Source: a bacterium (GTDB lineage: Bacteria > Patescibacteriota > Microgenomatia > Woykebacterales > RBG-16-39-9b). Taken from it: a DNA stretch of 64,000 nucleotides. The translations under genes were made by a program, and so were the position numbers. Where the stretch lies: assembly GCA_030704665.1 (NCBI GenBank), contig JAUYID010000009.1, positions 163-64,162 of the forward strand, written 5' to 3'. The notes beneath the pieces were generated by a model. That model saw nothing but the letters and a program-made list of their open reading frames with translations. It was not told the origin of the DNA and did no database searches. This document shows positions 2,640 to 36,128 of the stretch, one piece after another; within the stretch, counting starts at the first letter, position 1; every line of letters begins with the position of its first letter.

Positions 2640-3271
2640 ATTTGGGTCTTGGCAAGTGCCAAGCTGATAGAAAACTTTGGCTCAAGTCCTGATTTGATCG
2701 CCAAATCTGCCTCGAGCAAACTACGAAAAGCCCTTTTTATCCCCTTTTCACTCCAAAGTTTGGCTTGATCTGTTATTTTTTGCTGAACAAAAGAAGAGTG
2801 GCTGACTTTCTTGGCTTCCCCACTTAAAGCCAAACTGATTTGTTTCAGTTGACGTGAAAGTAAGCTCAGGATTACCTCCGGAGGGTTTTTCTCTGACAAG
2901 GCCAGCTCGAGATACTCCTGGGAAAGCTTTGCTTGTCGCAGACCGAAAGCATCGGTTAATTTAAAGACACCAACACTTTTGATCGGGAAGAAGCTTGTTT
3001 TTCCCGCCCAAGAAGTATTAGTCAGCGTGGAAGAGGACCAAAAAACAATTTCCTGTTGCAGAGATTTAAAACCTTCAACAAAATGTTTTTCCTCAAACCA
3101 ATCGACAATCAAAAAATTTCCAAAAAGATTTTCTTGCTCCAAGGTTTCTAAGAATTTATGCTTGGGGATACTTCTTGCATCCAAAACCACCACCTGCGGA
3201 TTTTGCTCTCGCAAACGAAGAAGAAAGGTTCGTGAAGAAACTACATCAGGTCCATGGATGAGGCGGATCAT
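2636..3271 (-). CDS. DNA polymerase III delta subunit-like (short form)
   Basis: C-terminal LLEADLAIKSG resembles the HolA C-terminal domain. 211 aa is short for HolA, so confidence is low. Confidence 0.4.
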   Translation of the reverse strand: MIRLIHGPDVVSSRTFLLRLREQNPQVVVLDARSIPKHKFLETLEQENLFGNFLIVDWFEEKHFVEGFKSLQQEIVFWSSSTLTNTSWAGKTSFFPIKSVGVFKLTDAFGLRQAKLSQEYLELALSEKNPPEVILSLLSRQLKQISLALSGEAKKVSHSSFVQQKITDQAKLWSEKGIKRAFRSLLEADLAIKSGLEPKFSISLALAKTQI

Positions 3272-4419
3272 TGCTTTTGTTTTTTCCCTGCCTCAGTTGT
3301 AGCTTTAGCTTCTTCTTGGAAGATATTTTTGACTGCTTGCTGAATATTTGTCCAACTTCCACCTTTCGGTATTACAACATAGGCTCCCCCGTACTGGGAA
3401 GACGGTGGGTGGATCATGTAATTTGTCGTATCAAGCACTAAATTCTTTATGGTGGCAGCATTAATTTCTCGACTGTATTTGTAAAGTTTTGGTAGGGCAG
3501 CGAGATCAACATCAGTTGAAACCGTCTCTCCAAAGGCAGAAAAGAGTTTGTTTATTTTTAAGGGGTCAAAAATTGTAAAGAGTGACAAAGCTTTGTCTCG
3601 GGCGGCCAAAATCACTTTTTGTTGTCTCTTGGCACGGGCAAAGTCACTTCCTTCGCCATTCGTTCCTTTACGGCTGCGGACAAATTCCAATGCTCGACTC
3701 CCACTCATATGTTGTAAACCAGCGTTGAAATGAATGTGCTTGTAGCCACTGGCAGTTTTGGTCGAATCTGGGTAGCTCCAATCATCAAAAGCTTTGTCCA
3801 CTTTTACATCTACTCCACCCAAACTATCAATTCCTTTTTTAAAGCCGGCAAAATCAATTCTGGTCACATAATGAATTGGAATTCCCAGGCTTTGGCTGAT
3901 AACAGTTTTCGCCATTGCCGCACCCCCACCCGGATAGCCAAGACTTTCCCCATACGAATAGGAGGCGTTAATTTTTGTATACGCTGAGCCGTGACCCTCC
4001 CAAGAAGGAAGTTGGACCCAAGTATCCCGGGGAATTGAAATCATCGCCACCTTTTTGGTGTTTTGGTCAAGGGAAATTATCAGCATAGTATCGGAGAGAA
4101 AACCGTTGCGTTTAACTTCTCCGTTACCAAGATTGTAAGAGTAAGGAACGTTGTCTCTTTTATCAATTCCTAAAAGTAAGAAGTTTGTTCGGCCGTTGTC
4201 AGATTTTAATGTTCCCTCTGGATTTTTTACCAAAGAAAGGGCTGCTGAAGGGTTTTTGAGGATTTCCCGAAGCAAAGCTGCCGCCGGAAAATACAAAACA
4301 TAGCCAGCGTAAAGAACAATGGTTGTCAAAAACACCAGGGCTGACCATTTAACAATTTTTTTGGTTCTAGATCTCTCTTTCTTTTTCTGGGAGAGAACAC
4401 CCAAATCTACGTATTGCAT
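3268..4419 (-). CDS. LytR-CpsA-Psr (LCP) family cell-envelope phosphotransferase
   Basis: N-terminal TM helix, then LLLGIDKRD...SDTMLIISLD...ISIPRDTWV, which are typical LCP motifs. Confidence 0.8.
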   Translation of the reverse strand: MQYVDLGVLSQKKKERSRTKKIVKWSALVFLTTIVLYAGYVLYFPAAALLREILKNPSAALSLVKNPEGTLKSDNGRTNFLLLGIDKRDNVPYSYNLGNGEVKRNGFLSDTMLIISLDQNTKKVAMISIPRDTWVQLPSWEGHGSAYTKINASYSYGESLGYPGGGAAMAKTVISQSLGIPIHYVTRIDFAGFKKGIDSLGGVDVKVDKAFDDWSYPDSTKTASGYKHIHFNAGLQHMSGSRALEFVRSRKGTNGEGSDFARAKRQQKVILAARDKALSLFTIFDPLKINKLFSAFGETVSTDVDLAALPKLYKYSREINAATIKNLVLDTTNYMIHPPSSQYGGAYVVIPKGGSWTNIQQAVKNIFQEEAKATTEAGKKQKQ

Positions 4420-10225: not shown

Positions 10226-10255
10226 TCGGTAGTGTCGGTTCGACGCGGGTGTGCT

Positions 10256-10522
10256 TTAGGCGACCGCTGCGGCCTCTACACAGTGATTCGCACAGCGCGA
10301 GGTCTGCTCGTCGATGGGGCCGCCGTGGTTGCCGGGGTCGACGATGACGCACTGGCGTACCTTCTTCGAGAGCACAGGGCTGGTCCGGGACCTGGGTGGT
10401 GTCTGGCGCCGGTCGCGGTGCGACTGGCAGATCACCTTGTCGGGGTTCTCGGGATCCTGGAACATCTGACCCTTGTGGTCATACTTGTCCTTGATCCAGC
10501 AGTCATTCAGGTTGGCCTCCAC
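10256..10522 (-). CDS. Small (88 aa) cysteine-containing protein with strongly GC3-biased codon usage; unknown function
   Basis: GTG start 6 nt downstream of a perfect AGGAGG Shine-Dalgarno. Third codon positions are almost all G/C, unlike the surrounding genes. Five Cys (..DCW.., ..ICQSH.., ..RQCVIV.., ..RCANHC..). Confidence 0.55.
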   Translation of the reverse strand: MEANLNDCWIKDKYDHKGQMFQDPENPDKVICQSHRDRRQTPPRSRTSPVLSKKVRQCVIVDPGNHGGPIDEQTSRCANHCVEAAAVA

Positions 10523-10952
10523 GTTGATCCTCCTGTGAATTTCCCTTTGGGTAAAGGGAATCCTACCGATTTTTGGCCTTGAAAGCCAAAGATCTGGTTT
10601 CTCATCAAGGTGTTAGCCCTTTTTTGAGACGAAAAACCAGATCTCTGACTGCCAAAATATTTACTTTTTCCTAACAATCACAAATTTGGCCCTTAAGAAC
10701 CGGGGGAGTTTTGTATTCACCACCTTTCCTTTAAGTTCTGCCCCGTAATTGCTTACGGGCCAAGTTTGTGATTACTAGTGCGAGAGGGGAGGAACGGTGT
10801 AGACGCTTGCGTCCCATTCGTCCTCCCCTGCGCGCCGGCTCGCTATTCAGTTGTCGCTTCTGAGTGTCACGTCCAGGTCATGGTCGTAACTGCTCCTTTC
10901 GTGAACTGAGACTTCGTGACCTTGCGGTCGCGTCGTCGCCGGTCGGTTGGGT
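10523..10952 (-). ncRNA. About 430-nt GC-rich, multi-hairpin leader/spacer RNA between two small ORFs (possible riboswitch or cis-regulatory RNA)
   Basis: Nested perfect stems: AATCACAAATTTGGCCC/GGGCCAAGTTTGTGATT enclosing CCCGTAAttgcTTACGGG; GGGGAGGA...TCCTCCCC; CCCTTTgggtAAAGGG; CTTTGGCcttgaaaGCCAAAG; AGATCTGGTTT...AAACCAGATCT. Confidence 0.4.
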
Positions 10953-11123
10953 CTAGTCGTTGGTGTCGTACTCCCTGTCGCCGCTGCCTTCAGTGGCGAA
11001 GAGGACACCACGGAGAACCCGGGAGGAAGGCACGGACCTGACGTTTTCCGTCGGCCCCATGAACTTCCACTGTGTGCGAACGATGCCATCCGCACCACGC
11101 TCCGCTTTCATCTGCTGCATCAT
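10953..11123 (-). CDS. Candidate small ORF (56 aa, below the ORF-track cutoff) with GC3-rich codons
   Basis: ATGATG start with AGGAGG 13 nt upstream (long spacer). Codon usage is coding-like and GC3-rich. No homolog recognised. Confidence 0.3.
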   Translation of the reverse strand: MMQQMKAERGADGIVRTQWKFMGPTENVRSVPSSRVLRGVLFATEGSGDREYDTND

Positions 11124-11321
11124 TTGGCGGGTTTAACCTCCTGAACTAAGATCCTAACCGCGTTTGTCTCAAATTGCTCTGGGGCAAACGCCATAAAATC
11201 TAGTCCTATAGTTCTATATTTTCAAAGAACAAAAAGATCTCGCTCTTCTTCCCTGTATTCAACTTTTCTTGAATTATGTGTCTGTTTTCGCAAAGCTCAA
11301 CATCCACGTAATTACTTTGTA

Positions 11322-11350
11322 ATTATAGCACAAGACAGACCTATAGTCAA
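11322..11350 (-). promoter_or_regulatory. Near-perfect sigma70 promoter (TTGACT-N17-TATAAT) reading leftward into the GC-rich island
   Basis: Minus-strand reads cTTGACT-ataggtctgtcttgtgc-TATAAT, read from the sequence. It lies just downstream of the helicase-nuclease stop. Confidence 0.6.
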
Positions 11351-11375
11351 GTTGTGGGCTTTTGTTTTGTTTTGG

Positions 11376-27746: not shown

Positions 27747-28847
27747 TCAACTCTCCCACAACCTCAGCTGGTGACCTTCTGGGTAGATGGTTTCCAACTG
27801 TTTCTCAATTGTTTCTCCTTCCCCCAACTTTCCAATGATCTGGCGAGGTAGGTCCTCACCATAAATCTGTCTCGGCAAGGAAAGCAGCCCGGCTGCTCTG
27901 GCGACATCGCCTTTGGTCAAAGCAGTGTGAAGCGCTCCTCGCAGCCGACGTCTTGTCCGCTTCGGCAATCTCAACTCACCGTCGCGAATACTCACCCCCA
28001 AAACCTGGAGATTGGTATGGCCACTGATCTCCATAAGCTTGGTTTTGCGCTCGTTCAACTCGAAGGGAGTCTTCTCGTTGACGATTCGGCAGAGGGTGCG
28101 AACTTCAAGCTCAGTAATGGGACCATCTGCCGAGATCGCAATATTGTCCGCATAGCGGGTGTAGATCGCTCCCATCTTGTCAGCAAAGATCGCCAGACGC
28201 CGGTCCAGGTCACGGCAAACGAAATTGAAGAGAACCGGCGAGCTTGGTGCTCCCTGGGGCAAACGTGGCTCTAGTCCCAAACCTGGCACTAGAGTGGTGC
28301 AAAGGCGAGTGATCGCCAAAGCAAGCCACTTACCGATCTTGACTGCTCCAACCTCCTGCTCCAAGAGCTCTTCGAGCAACCACTTTCTGGTTACACTGCT
28401 GAAAGCGTCTTTGAGATCCAAGCTGAGCAGGTAGCGTGAGTGTCGGTGAGCCTCCACTGCGGTCAGCATTTTTCGATCCCGTACAAAACCGTGACACGCC
28501 CTGTGCACCGGCAGACCGGAGAGCAGGTTGCGTAGCATTCGTCGCTGCAGCCAGCGCAGCCGGGGGTCGGGAATCATCAGGATCCGAAAGTCCCCTGACC
28601 TCTTCCTGATCAGTCGCATGTCGTAGGACTCATCAATTCCACTTTCAACAATTGCCTGCAGTTGAGCCGGCCAAACGTGAAAGAGCAGGGCGAGGTAGCG
28701 GTAGGGGTTAAAGGACCGCCGAATCCGAAAAGGATCCAGCTGTGTCCATTCCCGCCAATTTCCAACCCCGTAAGAATCGTAAACGTCATCCTCAAGTTCG
28801 CCGAAACGAAACTCTTCTCCCGCCTCTTCCCAGGCAATATCAAGCAT
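27747..28847 (-). CDS. Retron-type reverse transcriptase (366 aa), GC-rich
   Basis: RT domains: RILMIPDP (domain 1), HRACHGFVRDRK (domain 2), LDLKDAFSSV (domain 3), LPQGAPSSPVLFN (domain 4, QGxxxSP, not the DGR variant), YTRYADNIAIS (domain 5; YADN rather than YADD), NERKTKLM (domain 7), and a VTG-like LQVLGVSI. AAGGAG SD 6 nt upstream of the ATG. Confidence 0.7.
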   Translation of the reverse strand: MLDIAWEEAGEEFRFGELEDDVYDSYGVGNWREWTQLDPFRIRRSFNPYRYLALLFHVWPAQLQAIVESGIDESYDMRLIRKRSGDFRILMIPDPRLRWLQRRMLRNLLSGLPVHRACHGFVRDRKMLTAVEAHRHSRYLLSLDLKDAFSSVTRKWLLEELLEQEVGAVKIGKWLALAITRLCTTLVPGLGLEPRLPQGAPSSPVLFNFVCRDLDRRLAIFADKMGAIYTRYADNIAISADGPITELEVRTLCRIVNEKTPFELNERKTKLMEISGHTNLQVLGVSIRDGELRLPKRTRRRLRGALHTALTKGDVARAAGLLSLPRQIYGEDLPRQIIGKLGEGETIEKQLETIYPEGHQLRLWES

Positions 28848-28859
28848 GATCGTCTCCTT

Positions 28860-29050
28860 ATTGGGTCAGGGGAGGTTCAGTAAGAGCTTCACTAAACCTC
28901 CCCTTCTTCCGGCAGCTGGGTTATCTCTGCTTCTGGGCTCCGTACTCGGCGAGCCGGGCCCCCACTAATCACCTCTCACCAGGCAGCTACTGCCGGTGCG
29001 GGTCAGCCCTGAGATCAGGAGTCAAACCCTTTAAATTAACCCAGCTATGA
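28860..29050 (-). ncRNA. Candidate retron msr-msd non-coding RNA upstream of the RT
   Basis: 10-bp inverted repeats AGCTGGGTTA (29046-29037 on minus) and TAACCCAGCT (28923-28914), as in retron a1/a2. Internal stems GGGGAGGTT-17nt-AACCTCCCC, GGCTCgccgagtacgGAGCC, CCGGCAGtagCTGCCtGG. TGgTATATA extended -10 upstream. Confidence 0.5.
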
Positions 29051-29077
29051 CCTATATACCAGTTTCCCGGCAAAAGA

Positions 29078-29102
29078 AAAAGGGCCCGAAAGCCCTTTTC
29101 TC
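29078..29102. terminator. Intrinsic terminator downstream of groEL
   Basis: aaaAAGGGCccgaaaGCCCTTttct, palindromic with T/A runs either side. Confidence 0.6.
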
Positions 29103-29128
29103 TTTATCTTTAATCTGTTGATCTTAGT

Positions 29129-33573: not shown

Positions 33574-34152
33574 ATGTTAAAGAAAAATCCCAACCAACGT
33601 GTTGGTGTTTTCGTTGATGTCCAAAATATGTACTACTCGGCCAAAAACCTTTATGAAGGTCAGCGGGTCAATTTCAGCCAGATTTTGGAAAAGGCCACCG
33701 CTGGTCGACAAATGATTCGTGCTTTTGCTTACGTCATTAAAGCTTCAATGCCTGAGGAGCAGACCTTTTTTGATGCTCTCGAAAAGGCCGGTTTTGAAGT
33801 CAAAAGTAAAGATGTTCAAATTTTCCCGGGTGGGGTAAAAAAAGGTGATTGGGACGTCGGAATTGCGATCGATATGATTCGCCTCGCCCCAAGACTAGAT
33901 GTTCTAGTTTTGGTCTCTGGTGATGGGGACTACATTAACCTAGTCGAATATCTCCAAAACCAAGGCTACCGAGTCGAGTCGATGAGTTTTGGCAAATCTA
34001 CTTCTGGGAAACTGATCGAGCAAATCGATGAGTTCACGGATATGGATGAAAATTATCAACAGTATCTTTTCCCGATGAAAAGCTCAAAAGTCAGACGCAG
34101 TTTCCGACCCAAGTCTGATCCTGGCTCAACTCCGATCTTGCCCGAACTTTAG
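33574..34152 (+). CDS. NYN/LabA-like domain protein (predicted RNase/limkain-type)
   Basis: VGVFVDVQN...LVLVSGDGDY motif. Confidence 0.65.
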   Translation: MLKKNPNQRVGVFVDVQNMYYSAKNLYEGQRVNFSQILEKATAGRQMIRAFAYVIKASMPEEQTFFDALEKAGFEVKSKDVQIFPGGVKKGDWDVGIAIDMIRLAPRLDVLVLVSGDGDYINLVEYLQNQGYRVESMSFGKSTSGKLIEQIDEFTDMDENYQQYLFPMKSSKVRRSFRPKSDPGSTPILPEL

Positions 34153-34154
34153 GT

Positions 34155-35075
34155 CTCTAAAAACGAGAAAGCCACCCTAGGTCAAGTCAACCTGTGAAAG
34201 GTCTTCCTGATCTGGGTGGCCCTCTCTCCAATCAGATGTAATTCGGTTTTGTCGACATTACAGGCCGGTCTTTCCCAAGTTAGGTCTGATCAGCCTTGTC
34301 GGCGCCGGGACGGTCGCTTAGAGCTTCTTCAGGGTGAGGTCACTTCGCATGAAGTTGTCCTTTCCATGCGCTACTCGCTCTACCTGAGCGGATCCGGCAG
34401 TGGAGAAACACTCCACTTACTAGTCACTCTCGTTTCCAAGCCAACGTCTCGAAGTTAAAGCGTCCTTTGATCGGTTACGATGAGCCGGCGGCCCTCGACA
34501 CCGTAGCGGACGCAGACTCACCCGGTGTTCTCGCCCTTCGCGAGGCGCGACGACGACGCGCAGATTTCGTCAAACAACGTCACCAGAGCGAGGGCCGGGC
34601 CGTTCTTGTTGTGGAACATCTTCACTTCCTTTCTGTTCCACTCGTGTCGGCACACCGTGTGTCGATCACACCTTTCTTCCCAGAAAAGTGCCGCGATTAT
34701 AGCGCAGTCGATCTAGGTCTTGGTTAGACCTCCATGACGTTTGTCATGGGCCGACACCTGTTTCGCTCGTCAGTACACTACGTAGGAGCGGACCAGGATA
34801 AATGAAGCCCAGGTTTTAGTCGACATGCCTCGGCTCTACGAAAGGGTTGGTAGTGGGGTTCGTCACGTGTCCGGTTTGAGCATATGCTCAGAGTCCTTTC
34901 TACTGGAGACGTTGCCACGACCCTACTACGCTGCCTAATGGTGCTGTTCTTTATCGTCGTATGACGCCGACTTGAGGTGAACATCCTCACAATTTTCCCA
35001 GAAGCCATAGCACATGGTCTTATACGGGTAAGAGTCGGTTGAACACAGCACGCTCGAACAGCGGAGTATTCTCTC
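34155..35075 (-). ncRNA. Candidate ~0.9 kb GC-rich non-coding RNA (no credible ORF in six frames)
   Basis: Perfect consensus promoter immediately upstream on the minus strand. Many perfect hairpins/palindromes (TGAGCATATGCTCA, CATGACgtttGTCATG, GGTCTtggttAGACC). Terminal stem GCCACCC...GGGTGGC followed by a T-run at the far end. Confidence 0.4.
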
Positions 35076-35088
35076 TTTAATCGCCGTT

Positions 35089-35117
35089 ATTATAGTTAAG
35101 ACTTGCTTGCTTGTCAA
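35089..35117 (-). promoter_or_regulatory. Perfect consensus sigma70 promoter TTGACA-N17-TATAAT directed leftward into the GC-rich ORF-less island
   Basis: Minus strand reads TTGACA-agcaagcaagtcttaac-TATAAT (plus 35112-35117 tgtcaa; 35089-35094 attata). Overlaps the divergent tsaD promoter region. Confidence 0.6.
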
Positions 35118-35144
35118 GTTTCTCCCCACTGGTACAATCAAACT

Positions 35145-36128
35145 ATGAAAATTTTGGGGATTGAAACTTCTTGTGATGAAACTGCTCTGGCAGTGGTTGA
35201 AGACGGACAAAGAATTTTAAGTAATGTCATTTCTTCTTCTTTACCCTTGCACACCGAGACTGGGGGAATCATTCCCGAGAGAGCTGCACGCGAACAAACA
35301 AAAGCGATCATCCCTACCTTGCAAGCAGCTTTGGACGAAGCGAGTCTAAAACTTGAACAGCTCGATGCGGTCGCGGTCACAGCCGGTCCCGGCCTGATTG
35401 GCTCTTTATTAGTTGGGGTGGAAACTGCCAAAACTCTTGCTTATTTATCCAGTCTACCTCTAGTTCCCATTAACCACTTGATCGGACACGTCTACGCCAA
35501 CTGGCTCGAAAGAGAGGTTGAACCAACTTTTCCCAATCTGGCTTTAATAGTTTCTGGGGGACACACCGAAATTTTTTTGATGTACGGACACGGAAAATTT
35601 GAACGCCTCGGGGGAACCCGTGATGACGCCGCTGGTGAGGCTTTTGACAAAGGGGCCCGCCTACTTGGTCTTCCGTATCCGGGCGGACCTTCAATTCAGA
35701 AAAAGGCGGACTTAACCAAAACAGCTCTTTATAAACTCCCCCGACCAATGCTTGGTAGCCTTGATTTTGATTTTTCTTTTTCTGGGCTAAAAACTGCTTT
35801 AGCAACTTTGATCGAAAAAGAAAACATCCGCGCTAAAGATATTCCCGCCCTTGCAGCCAGTTTCCAAGAAGCGATTGTTGATACCTTGGTAACCAAAACC
35901 TTGAAAGCTACCGAAAAGTACAGGGTAAAAACAATTCTTCTTTCTGGTGGAGTTGCGGCCAACCAAAGGTTGCGGAACAAGTTCCAAGAAAGTTTCGATG
36001 GGGAAATAATTGTTTCTCGACCTGACTTGTCCGTCGACAACGGGGCGATGATTGCCGCCGCCGCTTTTTACAATTTTAAGAAAACGGGTTGGGACACAGT
36101 ACAAACCGATCCTGGCTTACTGCTTTAA
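35145..36128 (+). CDS. tsaD: tRNA N6-adenosine threonylcarbamoyltransferase TsaD (Kae1/Gcp)
   Basis: MKILGIETSCDETALAV, HxxGH metal site (NHLIGHVYANW), GGVAAN. Confidence 0.9.
   Translation: MKILGIETSCDETALAVVEDGQRILSNVISSSLPLHTETGGIIPERAAREQTKAIIPTLQAALDEASLKLEQLDAVAVTAGPGLIGSLLVGVETAKTLAYLSSLPLVPINHLIGHVYANWLEREVEPTFPNLALIVSGGHTEIFLMYGHGKFERLGGTRDDAAGEAFDKGARLLGLPYPGGPSIQKKADLTKTALYKLPRPMLGSLDFDFSFSGLKTALATLIEKENIRAKDIPALAASFQEAIVDTLVTKTLKATEKYRVKTILLSGGVAANQRLRNKFQESFDGEIIVSRPDLSVDNGAMIAAAAFYNFKKTGWDTVQTDPGLLL

Follow-up and report, generated by a model that had tools for sequence, protein, structure and literature searches.

What does a patescibacterial genome keep in the 992-nt spacer that separates an NYN gene from tsaD, where no long open reading frame (ORF) is found? 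The spacer lies in a 64,000-nucleotide (nt) stretch of contig JAUYID010000009.1 (hereafter the window), and an earlier reading of it, made from the sequence only, proposed a large structured non-coding RNA (ncRNA). We found that the best-conserved core of the locus is protein-coding and consists of two overlapping mini-ORFs, one of which contains the motif Arg-Gly-Pro-Pro (RGPP) and has a coding-type substitution pattern among relatives. We give about an even chance to the reading that the spacer is a leader-type RNA in which two mini-ORFs are coupled in translation and ribosomes stall in a programmed way, with structured non-coding RNA on either side. By comparison with its relatives, the locus is best described as a conserved, fast-evolving, lineage-specific, two-module RNA locus outside the known large-ncRNA classes.

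The spacer looks like a conserved transcription unit

Within the window, the spacer is the widest gap between ORFs of at least 100 amino acids (aa) and has the highest GC content among such gaps (0.52 as compared to 0.46 for the whole window). All six frames contain 12-16 stop codons each, which agrees with the earlier description of a GC-rich spacer without a long ORF. Six-frame translations of the spacer gave no match to Pfam, so we find no decayed long protein gene there, which was the outcome that the sequence-only reading had raised against itself. The sigma-70-type promoter that it had noted on the minus strand, P1, matches the consensus at 12 of 12 positions; no other promoter on either strand of the window is a perfect consensus match, and both hexamers of P1 are invariant in six close relatives. 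The start site of transcription would be near 35082. At the opposite end, the proposed stem between GCCACCC (34171-34177) and GGGTGGC (34214-34220) exists; however, it is not long-range. Read on the minus strand, GGCCACCC-loop-GGGTGGCTTTCTCGTTTTT has the shape of an intrinsic terminator and belongs to a 70-nt terminator hairpin, T2; the window and the related loci L083, L084 and L087 have exactly the same 3' arm and U-run (GGGTGGCTTTCTCGTTT) in this hairpin.

TsaD places the organism among Patescibacteria, and the closest TsaD proteins from reference genomes are about 55% identical (Woesebacteria, Chisholmbacteria and similar groups). When we anchored loci from 80 reference genomes on TsaD (47-57% identical), we found no homologous spacer DNA. 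All metagenomic TsaD relatives (63-79% identity) keep the gene order galU-like (–), NYN (+), spacer, tsaD (+), and the comparative search recovered the element as a long, GC-enriched NYN–tsaD spacer of 0.5-1.4 kb in 11 distinct related loci (GC of 0.45-0.54 in the spacers as compared to 0.41-0.47 in the loci). The neighbours encoded in all loci are NYN, TsaD, an AAA_33 kinase, ValS, a GalU-like protein, SBP and GroES/EL. Similarity from spacer to spacer is patchy and collinear (70-85% over 50-280 nt), and the spacer diverges fast and in a modular way among genomes whose TsaD proteins are 72-79% identical. The locus looks like a conserved unit missed by annotation, transcribed from the minus strand with its own strong promoter and terminator.

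In relatives, an internal terminator (T1) and an internal promoter (P2) divide the locus into two tandem units: P1–T1 (module A), which spans 350-700 nt and is absent in L090 and L213, and P2–T2 (module B), which spans 450-600 nt in close relatives and less in distant ones. T1 has the form GAGAGAG-stem-loop-stem-CTTTCCGTTT and shares one design with T2; P2 (CCYATAG followed by TTGACA-N17/18-TGTATAAT) lies directly 3' of T1. We considered the two modules as tandem paralogs and rejected this, since they have no similarity past the promoters. In the window, T1 has lost its U-run and P2 its –35 element, so that in this genome modules A and B are plausibly joined in one transcript of about 920 nt that starts at P1. 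A metagenome scan with the P2 motif returned at least 120 mostly unrelated promoters, with one true homolog, L121, among the matches listed, and pattern scans of viral contigs returned 0 matches and 1 chance match.

The best-conserved core consists of two overlapping mini-ORFs

The sequence-only reading saw no credible coding frame in the spacer, only TTG-initiated ORFs lacking a ribosome-binding site. This did not survive comparison with relatives. Module B contains two minus-strand mini-ORFs whose positions are both kept in relatives: sORF1, which has an ATG start and a Shine-Dalgarno (SD)-like AAGGAAG, and sORF-R, which has a clear coding substitution pattern. In relatives, the SD is AAGGAGG or AGGAGG, lies 5-8 nt before the ATG and follows P2 in all cases. 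sORF1 is 9, 16, 19, 22, 23, 30, 30 or 33 codons long, with about 8 conserved residues, and its stop overlaps the start of the following ORF (UGAUG or UAAUG; GUGA in the window) in 8 distinct sequences. Counted from the sORF1 ATG, the start of this second ORF lies at a distance of 2 mod 3 in all eight, and seven different lengths (29-98 nt) are represented.

In 7 of these 8 sequences, sORF-R begins M-x-L-R-P-x-R-[I/C]-R-[G/D]-P-P. RGPP occupies the same aligned codons in the window, L083, L084, L085, L087 and L088/L121, and L091 has RDPP. The Arg codons of sORF-R alternate between CGN and AGR, and among the seven sequences we counted 69 synonymous and 57 non-synonymous differences in frame, as compared to 18:100 and 12:99 in the shifted frames. 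In an unbiased sliding scan of a six-sequence alignment, sORF-R is the single coding-type peak (synonymous fraction of 0.59 as compared to a median of 0.10). Past RGPP, the tails of 8-21 residues are not conserved, and a conserved DNA block there is read in different frames, as would be expected if just the stretch up to a stall site matters.

Between sORF-R and T2, the window has no co-directional gene; the 3' part of the RNA is instead about 330 nt of structured sequence that takes in two hairpins (H1 and H2), a GC palindrome and T2. A possible third mini-ORF in this region, for which the evidence is weak, has the counterparts MRMPFTLKNF in L087 and MRFLVDEIF in L083. In L084 and L085, the place of H1 and H2 is taken by a 40-46-aa ORF, sORF2 (MILNRSGPSFATE...IVxxGxVAL...C), with its own SD 73-78 nt downstream. 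The features of the locus are collected in Table 1.

Table 1. Features of the NYN–tsaD locus. Positions refer to the window unless a related locus is named.
Feature	Position	Strand	Remarks
NYN–tsaD spacer	34153-35144		992 nt; NYN 33574-34152 (+), tsaD ATG 35145 (+)
tsaD promoter	35111-35138	+	TTGTCA-N16-TACAAT; –35 at 35111-35116, –10 at 35133-35138
P1 promoter	35089-35117	–	TTGACA (35117-35112)-N17-TATAAT (35094-35089)
Module A	34750-35082	–	candidate non-coding RNA segment; separate P1-to-T1 unit in relatives
Module A, possible closing stem	35059-35068 and 34924-34933	–	conserved pieces; 5' GAGAGnnTACTCCGCTG can pair with CAGCGTAGTA
Module A, GAGG/CCTC hairpin	34973-34990	–	conserved piece
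Module A, conserved AACCGGACACGTGA	34863-34876	–	
T1 remnant	34757-34794	–	internal terminator; hairpin retained, U-run lost in window
P2 remnant	34696-34701	–	internal promoter; just –10 TATAAT left in window, –35 gone
5' UTR (untranslated region) hairpin before sORF1	34657-34671	–	relatives CACGAC/GTCGTG or compensated CACCGA/TCGGTG; read directly from the sequences
SD-like AAGGAAG	34625-34631	–	7 nt before sORF1 ATG
sORF1	34518-34619	–	ATG, 33 codons, MFHNKNGPALALVTLFDEICASSSRLAKGENTG; TGA stop overlaps sORF-R GTG start
sORF-R	34420-34521	–	GTG, 33 codons, MSLRPLRCRGPPAHRNRSKDALTSRRWLGNESD; RGPP codons 34497-34486
Hairpin H1	34400-34416	–	GTGGAG-TGTTT-CTCCAC; common to window, L083 and L087
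Hairpin H2	34376-34390	–	CGCTC-AGGTA-GAGCG; common to window, L083 and L087
Possible third mini-ORF	34318-34350	–	MRSDLTLKKL; behind weak GAAAGGA; synonymous fraction 0.23
GC palindrome	34300-34307	–	CGGCGCCG; conserved in window, L083, L087, L088 and L084
T2 terminator	34159-34228	–	GAGAGAGGGCCACCC-loop-GGGTGGCTTTCTCGTTTTT; convergent with NYN, end about 6 nt from NYN stop
sORF2	L084 3801-3679; L085 7108-6968	–	

RGPP marks a candidate programmed stall site

Arrest at RGPP is the most robust among RAPP-like motifs and is refractory to EF-P, RDPP and RSPP are partially permissive, and RGPP is the most under-represented of 160,000 tetrapeptides across 10 major bacterial groups (Fujiwara et al., 2025; PMC12992588). 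For RAP/P arrest, the mechanism is established. RxPP by itself can arrest translation, and the residues just N-terminal of the motif (seven in a swap experiment cited there) act as a regulator module (Morici et al., PMC10951233). In the 64-kb window, neither RGPP nor RAPP occurs in the real proteins. An invariant RGPP with 8 conserved residues before it and a drifting tail after it has the appearance expected of a programmed stall site, and the predicted stall has the Pro codon 34491-34489 at the P-site, with codon 34488-34486 at the A-site.

We also observed that the 5' arm of T2 (AGAGGGCCACCC, 34214-34225, –) reads Arg-Gly-Pro-Pro in one frame, as it does in L087, and resembles the RGPP-coding block of sORF-R (CGAGGGCCGCCG, 34497-34486). 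With no start codon 5' of it, this second RGPP is probably a by-product. By hand alignment only, about 10 bp (G-U pairs included) could in principle form between the 3' arm of T2 and the RGPP block.

In the mechanism that we infer, from transcription and translation through coupling and arrest to any regulatory output, module A (P1 to about 34750) would be a non-coding RNA. In module B, ribosomes would load at the SD, translate sORF1, terminate at the stop that overlaps the sORF-R start and re-initiate there. Past the 8 conserved residues, they would encounter Arg-Gly-Pro-Pro and stall (R-G-P/P), and the stalled ribosome would decide the fate of the structured 3' RNA of about 330 nt (H1/H2, GC palindrome and T2). 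In some relatives, the stall could also control translation of the downstream sORF2. Alternatively, the locus could act through antisense transcription that reads on into the convergent NYN gene, or by competing with the tsaD promoter, which overlaps P1.

Several observations weigh against stalling in a coupled leader. The motif lies at residues 9-12 of a 20-33-aa peptide that has no signal, membrane or hydrophobic segment, and sORF-R lacks its own SD, with GTG as its start codon in the window. The copy in the window may be decaying, given that its SD is weaker and the –35 element of P2 is gone. RGPP-bearing sequences number just seven, and they share ancestry. In a sister clade (L090, L215 and L213; TsaD 63-64% identical), P2, the SD and a mini-ORF are retained; however, the peptides differ (MHMKRDPV... 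at L090 5516-5410, MSRIRDPV... at L215 4387-4298 and MRQRNKDPA at L213 4868-4839, all on the minus strand) and have RDPV or KDPA instead of RGPP. L090 retains the UGAUG overlap with a different second peptide, and in L215 the two mini-ORFs are apparently fused in one frame. Codon differences in sORF1 do not discriminate between frames (51:141 in frame as compared to 45:146 in +1), and with these counts we withdraw the view that synonymous variation proves its N-terminus (M-L-H-N-R-S-G-P) to be coding; it is the SD, the ATG and the preserved frame that speak for translation of sORF1. The codon statistics of the sORF2 pair likewise do not discriminate between frames. No co-directional gene precedes T2 in the window, which therefore lacks the kind of target that an arrest peptide classically has. 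When we placed a 31-nt ribosome footprint at the stall site in partition-function folding of six genomes, just local pairing changed, and neither a downstream SD nor T2 was affected in a consistent way; we found no conserved anti-terminator.

A more specific form of the stalling model, which we regard as rather unlikely, is that the locus is an orphan arrest-peptide riboregulator beside an independent ncRNA (module A). In this form, a two-step leader would use stalling to sense the translational state, for example the rescue capacity of EF-P or ABCF, the supply of Pro-tRNA or the availability of ribosomes. Its output would be RNA, with no downstream protein gene: stalling would affect how the 3' RNA is stabilised, processed or terminated, or would let antisense transcription run on into the convergent NYN ribonuclease-like gene.

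Small proteins as possible products of module B

It is also possible, if unlikely, that module B consists of small-protein genes. The sORF1/sORF2 family (M-x-[L/H]-N-R-S-G-P-S-F-A..., with a C-terminal Cys in sORF2), and perhaps sORF-R, would then be the products, acting as signalling, antimicrobial or RiPP-like peptides (ribosomally synthesized and post-translationally modified peptides); the folds of the RNA would be those of an ordinary UTR and terminator, and RGPP would simply be tolerated or would slow translation. In favour of this are the three members seen of the apparently very rare sORF2 group: sORF2 of L084, sORF2 of L085 and a 42-aa JGI protein, P0121, which are 55-59% identical over 40-46 aa, share MxLxRSGPSFA...IVGTGVVA...C-terminal Cys and have strong SDs. 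sORF1 of the window and sORF1 of L085 are similar across about 19 residues, and a 44-aa ORF in L213 (4770-4636, –) likewise ends in Thr-Cys and may be related to sORF2.

Other properties of the mini-ORFs do not fit products of this kind. sORF1 varies from 9 to 33 codons with conservation limited to its first residues, the tails of sORF-R drift and shift frame, and sORF2 is absent from the window, L083, L087 and L088. Pfam and NCBIfam contain no family that matches the mini-ORF peptides, P0121 was the single match when 5.8 billion proteins were searched with a profile, and there are no maturation or export genes nearby. The codon statistics of sORF1 and sORF2 given above are not decisive here, and RGPP is strongly selected against in ordinary proteins (PMC12992588). 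We keep a leader with programmed stalling as the preferred reading.

Structure, modules and known RNA families

About 80% of the spacer is non-coding, GC-enriched and folds more stably than shuffled sequence. We think it improbable that the whole spacer is a single structured ncRNA of about 900 nt whose function lies in its fold, with mini-ORFs that are incidental or merely load ribosomes. The locus is bounded by a strong promoter and a terminator, and the decay of T1 and P2 in the window makes one transcript plausible. The minus-strand RNA has a minimum free energy of –350 kcal/mol (z = –6.4 against dinucleotide shuffles, as compared to –5.2 for the plus strand), most A and B modules fold better than their shuffles (z of about –3 to –9), and the sense fold is more stable than the antisense fold in 8 of 9 B modules. 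In H1 and H2, all 11 pairs are paired in the window, L083 and L087 (100%), and 3 of them have compensatory changes, so that every variable stem position is compensated; 16 of 500 shuffles attained this value.

In module A, we found no coding-type signal (synonymous fraction of at most 0.13 in the sliding scan), and a hidden Markov model of the peptides, run against six-frame translations of all spacers, found no hidden peptide copies there. We rejected a long frame across the conserved module A blocks: it is open in the window and in L085, but stops close it in L083 and L084. The possible closing stem and the GAGG/CCTC hairpin are mostly invariant, and five sequences therefore yield essentially no covariation support (covariation term of +0.52). 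In L087, module A (3056-3719) is rearranged and about 250 nt longer than in other relatives, and its fold is exceptionally stable on both strands (z of –9.3 sense and –11.3 antisense).

The claim of a structured RNA thus holds in part, with a stable fold and compensated hairpins, whereas the claim of a single large ornate RNA of the OLE, GOLLD, ROOL, HEARO or intron kind does not. The scan of both strands with Rfam 15 that had been suggested (34050-35250) gave nothing even at E ≤ 10, for group II introns, RNase P, tmRNA and 6S RNA as for the other families; at gathering scores, Rfam found just a tRNA in the whole window and likewise in nine homologous loci, and ARAGORN found tRNA-Cys only. TnpB/IscB-type genes, whose adjacency marks HEARO/omega RNA and had been suggested as a check, are absent beside the spacer in every locus examined. 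Relatives have an internal terminator and promoter that make two units, module A is wholly missing in two of them, and large indels and alternative 3' forms occur even between close relatives. Multi-helix covariation is local only (H1/H2), with 5-7 homologs being too few for statistics, and the best-conserved block is coding.

Neighbouring promoters and genes

The –10 element of the tsaD promoter ends 6 nt 5' of the tsaD ATG, a spacing that is conserved in relatives, so tsaD mRNA is probably leaderless; the promoter appears as a conserved ATTGTA/ATTTTA block in the spacer alignment. Its –35 element (35111-35116) overlaps the P1 –35 element (35112-35117) back to back, and the two promoters may therefore compete for RNA polymerase. 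In L088 (and L121), a gene of the ThiS family (94 aa; L088 2497-2781, –) is inserted between tsaD and P1, so that P1 comes after the ThiS gene and does not abut the tsaD promoter.

We see little likelihood that the locus is mainly a device for transcriptional interference or antisense transcription, in which the minus-strand promoters modulate neighbours and RNA content is secondary. P1 would act against the tsaD promoter, and read-through of T2 would give antisense RNA to NYN and then enter the co-directional galU-like operon. The arrangement invites such a view: the –35 hexamers overlap over 35111-35117, T2 ends about 6 nt from the convergent NYN stop, the galU-like, SBP and groES/EL genes lie beyond NYN on the same minus strand, and the gene order is conserved in all relatives. 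In relatives, however, the two –35 elements lie 5-9 nt further apart, T2 is well formed and conserved in sequence, and neither an anti-terminator nor an effect of the modelled footprint on T2 was found. Interference also leaves the conservation of mini-ORFs, SDs, hairpins and two terminators unexplained.

That the spacer is a decaying remnant without present function, for example of a mobile or foreign GC-rich insert, is highly improbable: GC above that of the genome, a window copy that has lost T1 and the P2 –35 element and has a weaker SD and a GTG start, and rapid turnover between relatives would suit it, but the position is conserved in 11 related loci with invariant promoters, sORF-R has a signature of purifying selection, hairpin changes are compensated, blastn of the locus against phage and plasmid collections gave no match, and we found no repeats of it elsewhere in the window.

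Other sites in the window

The second-largest ORF-free gap (10583-11375, 793 nt, GC of 0.49) has a topology like that of the NYN–tsaD locus. On the minus strand, a near-perfect promoter (TTGACT-N17-TATAAT, –35 at 11350) directly follows the stop of a minus-strand gene of 982 aa and points into ORF-free, hairpin-rich sequence that is convergent with a plus-strand gene (10232-10582). In this gap, we found no Rfam match, no RGPP mini-ORF and no similarity to the NYN–tsaD locus; it is possibly another unannotated RNA.

A retron-like reverse transcriptase (RT) gene (27747-28847, –) lies between Peptidase_M23 and groEL and is absent from that place in relatives. Its best matches are PADLOC RT_other and RT_outgroup (about 1e-52), and it matches the NCBIfam retron St85 family below that family's cutoff. 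Directly upstream is a 281-nt gap (28848-29128, GC of 0.52), which is the expected place for a retron msr/msd RNA. We considered the NYN–tsaD spacer as the msr/msd RNA of this RT and rejected the link: the RT is 5.3 kb from the spacer with four genes between them, and it is absent in relatives that keep the spacer.

Comparison with known systems

RAPP/RGPP-type arrest peptides are known to act as sensors that adjust a downstream protein gene, in most cases for protein localisation and in cultivated phyla; we know of none reported in Patescibacteria. If the riboregulator form of our model is true, it would add a new output class for RAPP-type arrest peptides and be the first such system in Patescibacteria. 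Even the stall itself, if real, would widen the architecture and possible outputs of programmed stalling: unlike in known cases, a very short RGPP ORF is apparently fed by coupling from another mini-ORF, the RNA is strongly promoted without a downstream gene, and the host belongs to an uncultivated lineage with a reduced genome. The compact motif of 8 residues followed by RGPP is directly testable in existing E. coli and B. subtilis assays. More generally, GC-rich spacers with strong promoters that seem free of ORFs can conceal conserved mini-ORFs that gene callers and scanning by eye miss, and naming such spacers large ncRNAs requires a frame-aware comparative test.

The large ornate ncRNAs OLE, GOLLD, ROOL, HEARO/omega RNA and raiA are similar to the locus in size (0.5-1 kb), in GC enrichment over an AT-richer genome, in having a strong promoter and in the stability of the predicted fold. 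In contrast to them, the locus has no covariance-model match and no partner genes nearby (OapA, IscB/TnpB or a phage context), no conserved multi-helix architecture is seen in it, and it has fast module turnover and a coding conserved core. The dual-function RNAs RNAIII/hld, SgrS/SgrT and SR1/SR1P are likewise stand-alone transcripts with their own promoter and terminator that combine a small ORF with structured non-coding sequence; there is no homology to them, and the ORF content here looks regulatory and not effector-like.

The translational-attenuation leader peptides of ermC/ermB, cat and cmlA share with module B very short ORFs (9-33 codons here), a strong SD, hairpins that follow and conservation of just the first few residues. 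They differ in that the locus has no resistance gene or other regulated gene downstream, that two coupled leader ORFs are present and not one, and that we found no alternative pairing linking the stall site to a downstream SD.

In the typical RAPP/RGPP arrest peptide, the motif sits close to the C-terminus; the protein is small, secretory or membrane-located, and has a localisation signal through which the arrest can be released (PMC12992588). In such 50-300-aa proteins, the position of the motif contrasts with that in sORF-R (residues 9-12 of 20-33 aa). The start of sORF-R would also differ, since what is proposed here is termination-reinitiation from an upstream mini-ORF and not loading at its own SD. 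In the window, it is followed not by a co-directional protein gene but by structured RNA of about 330 nt with a terminator. In spite of these differences, sORF-R has in common with ApdA, ApdP, ApcA and the RGPP upstream ORFs of Streptomyces (SecM, with RAGP, being related) the R-[A/G]-P-P core, a short conserved stretch N-terminal of the motif that resembles a regulator module, a small unannotated ORF with unconserved sequence past the motif, and a motif that is otherwise absent from the proteins of the window.

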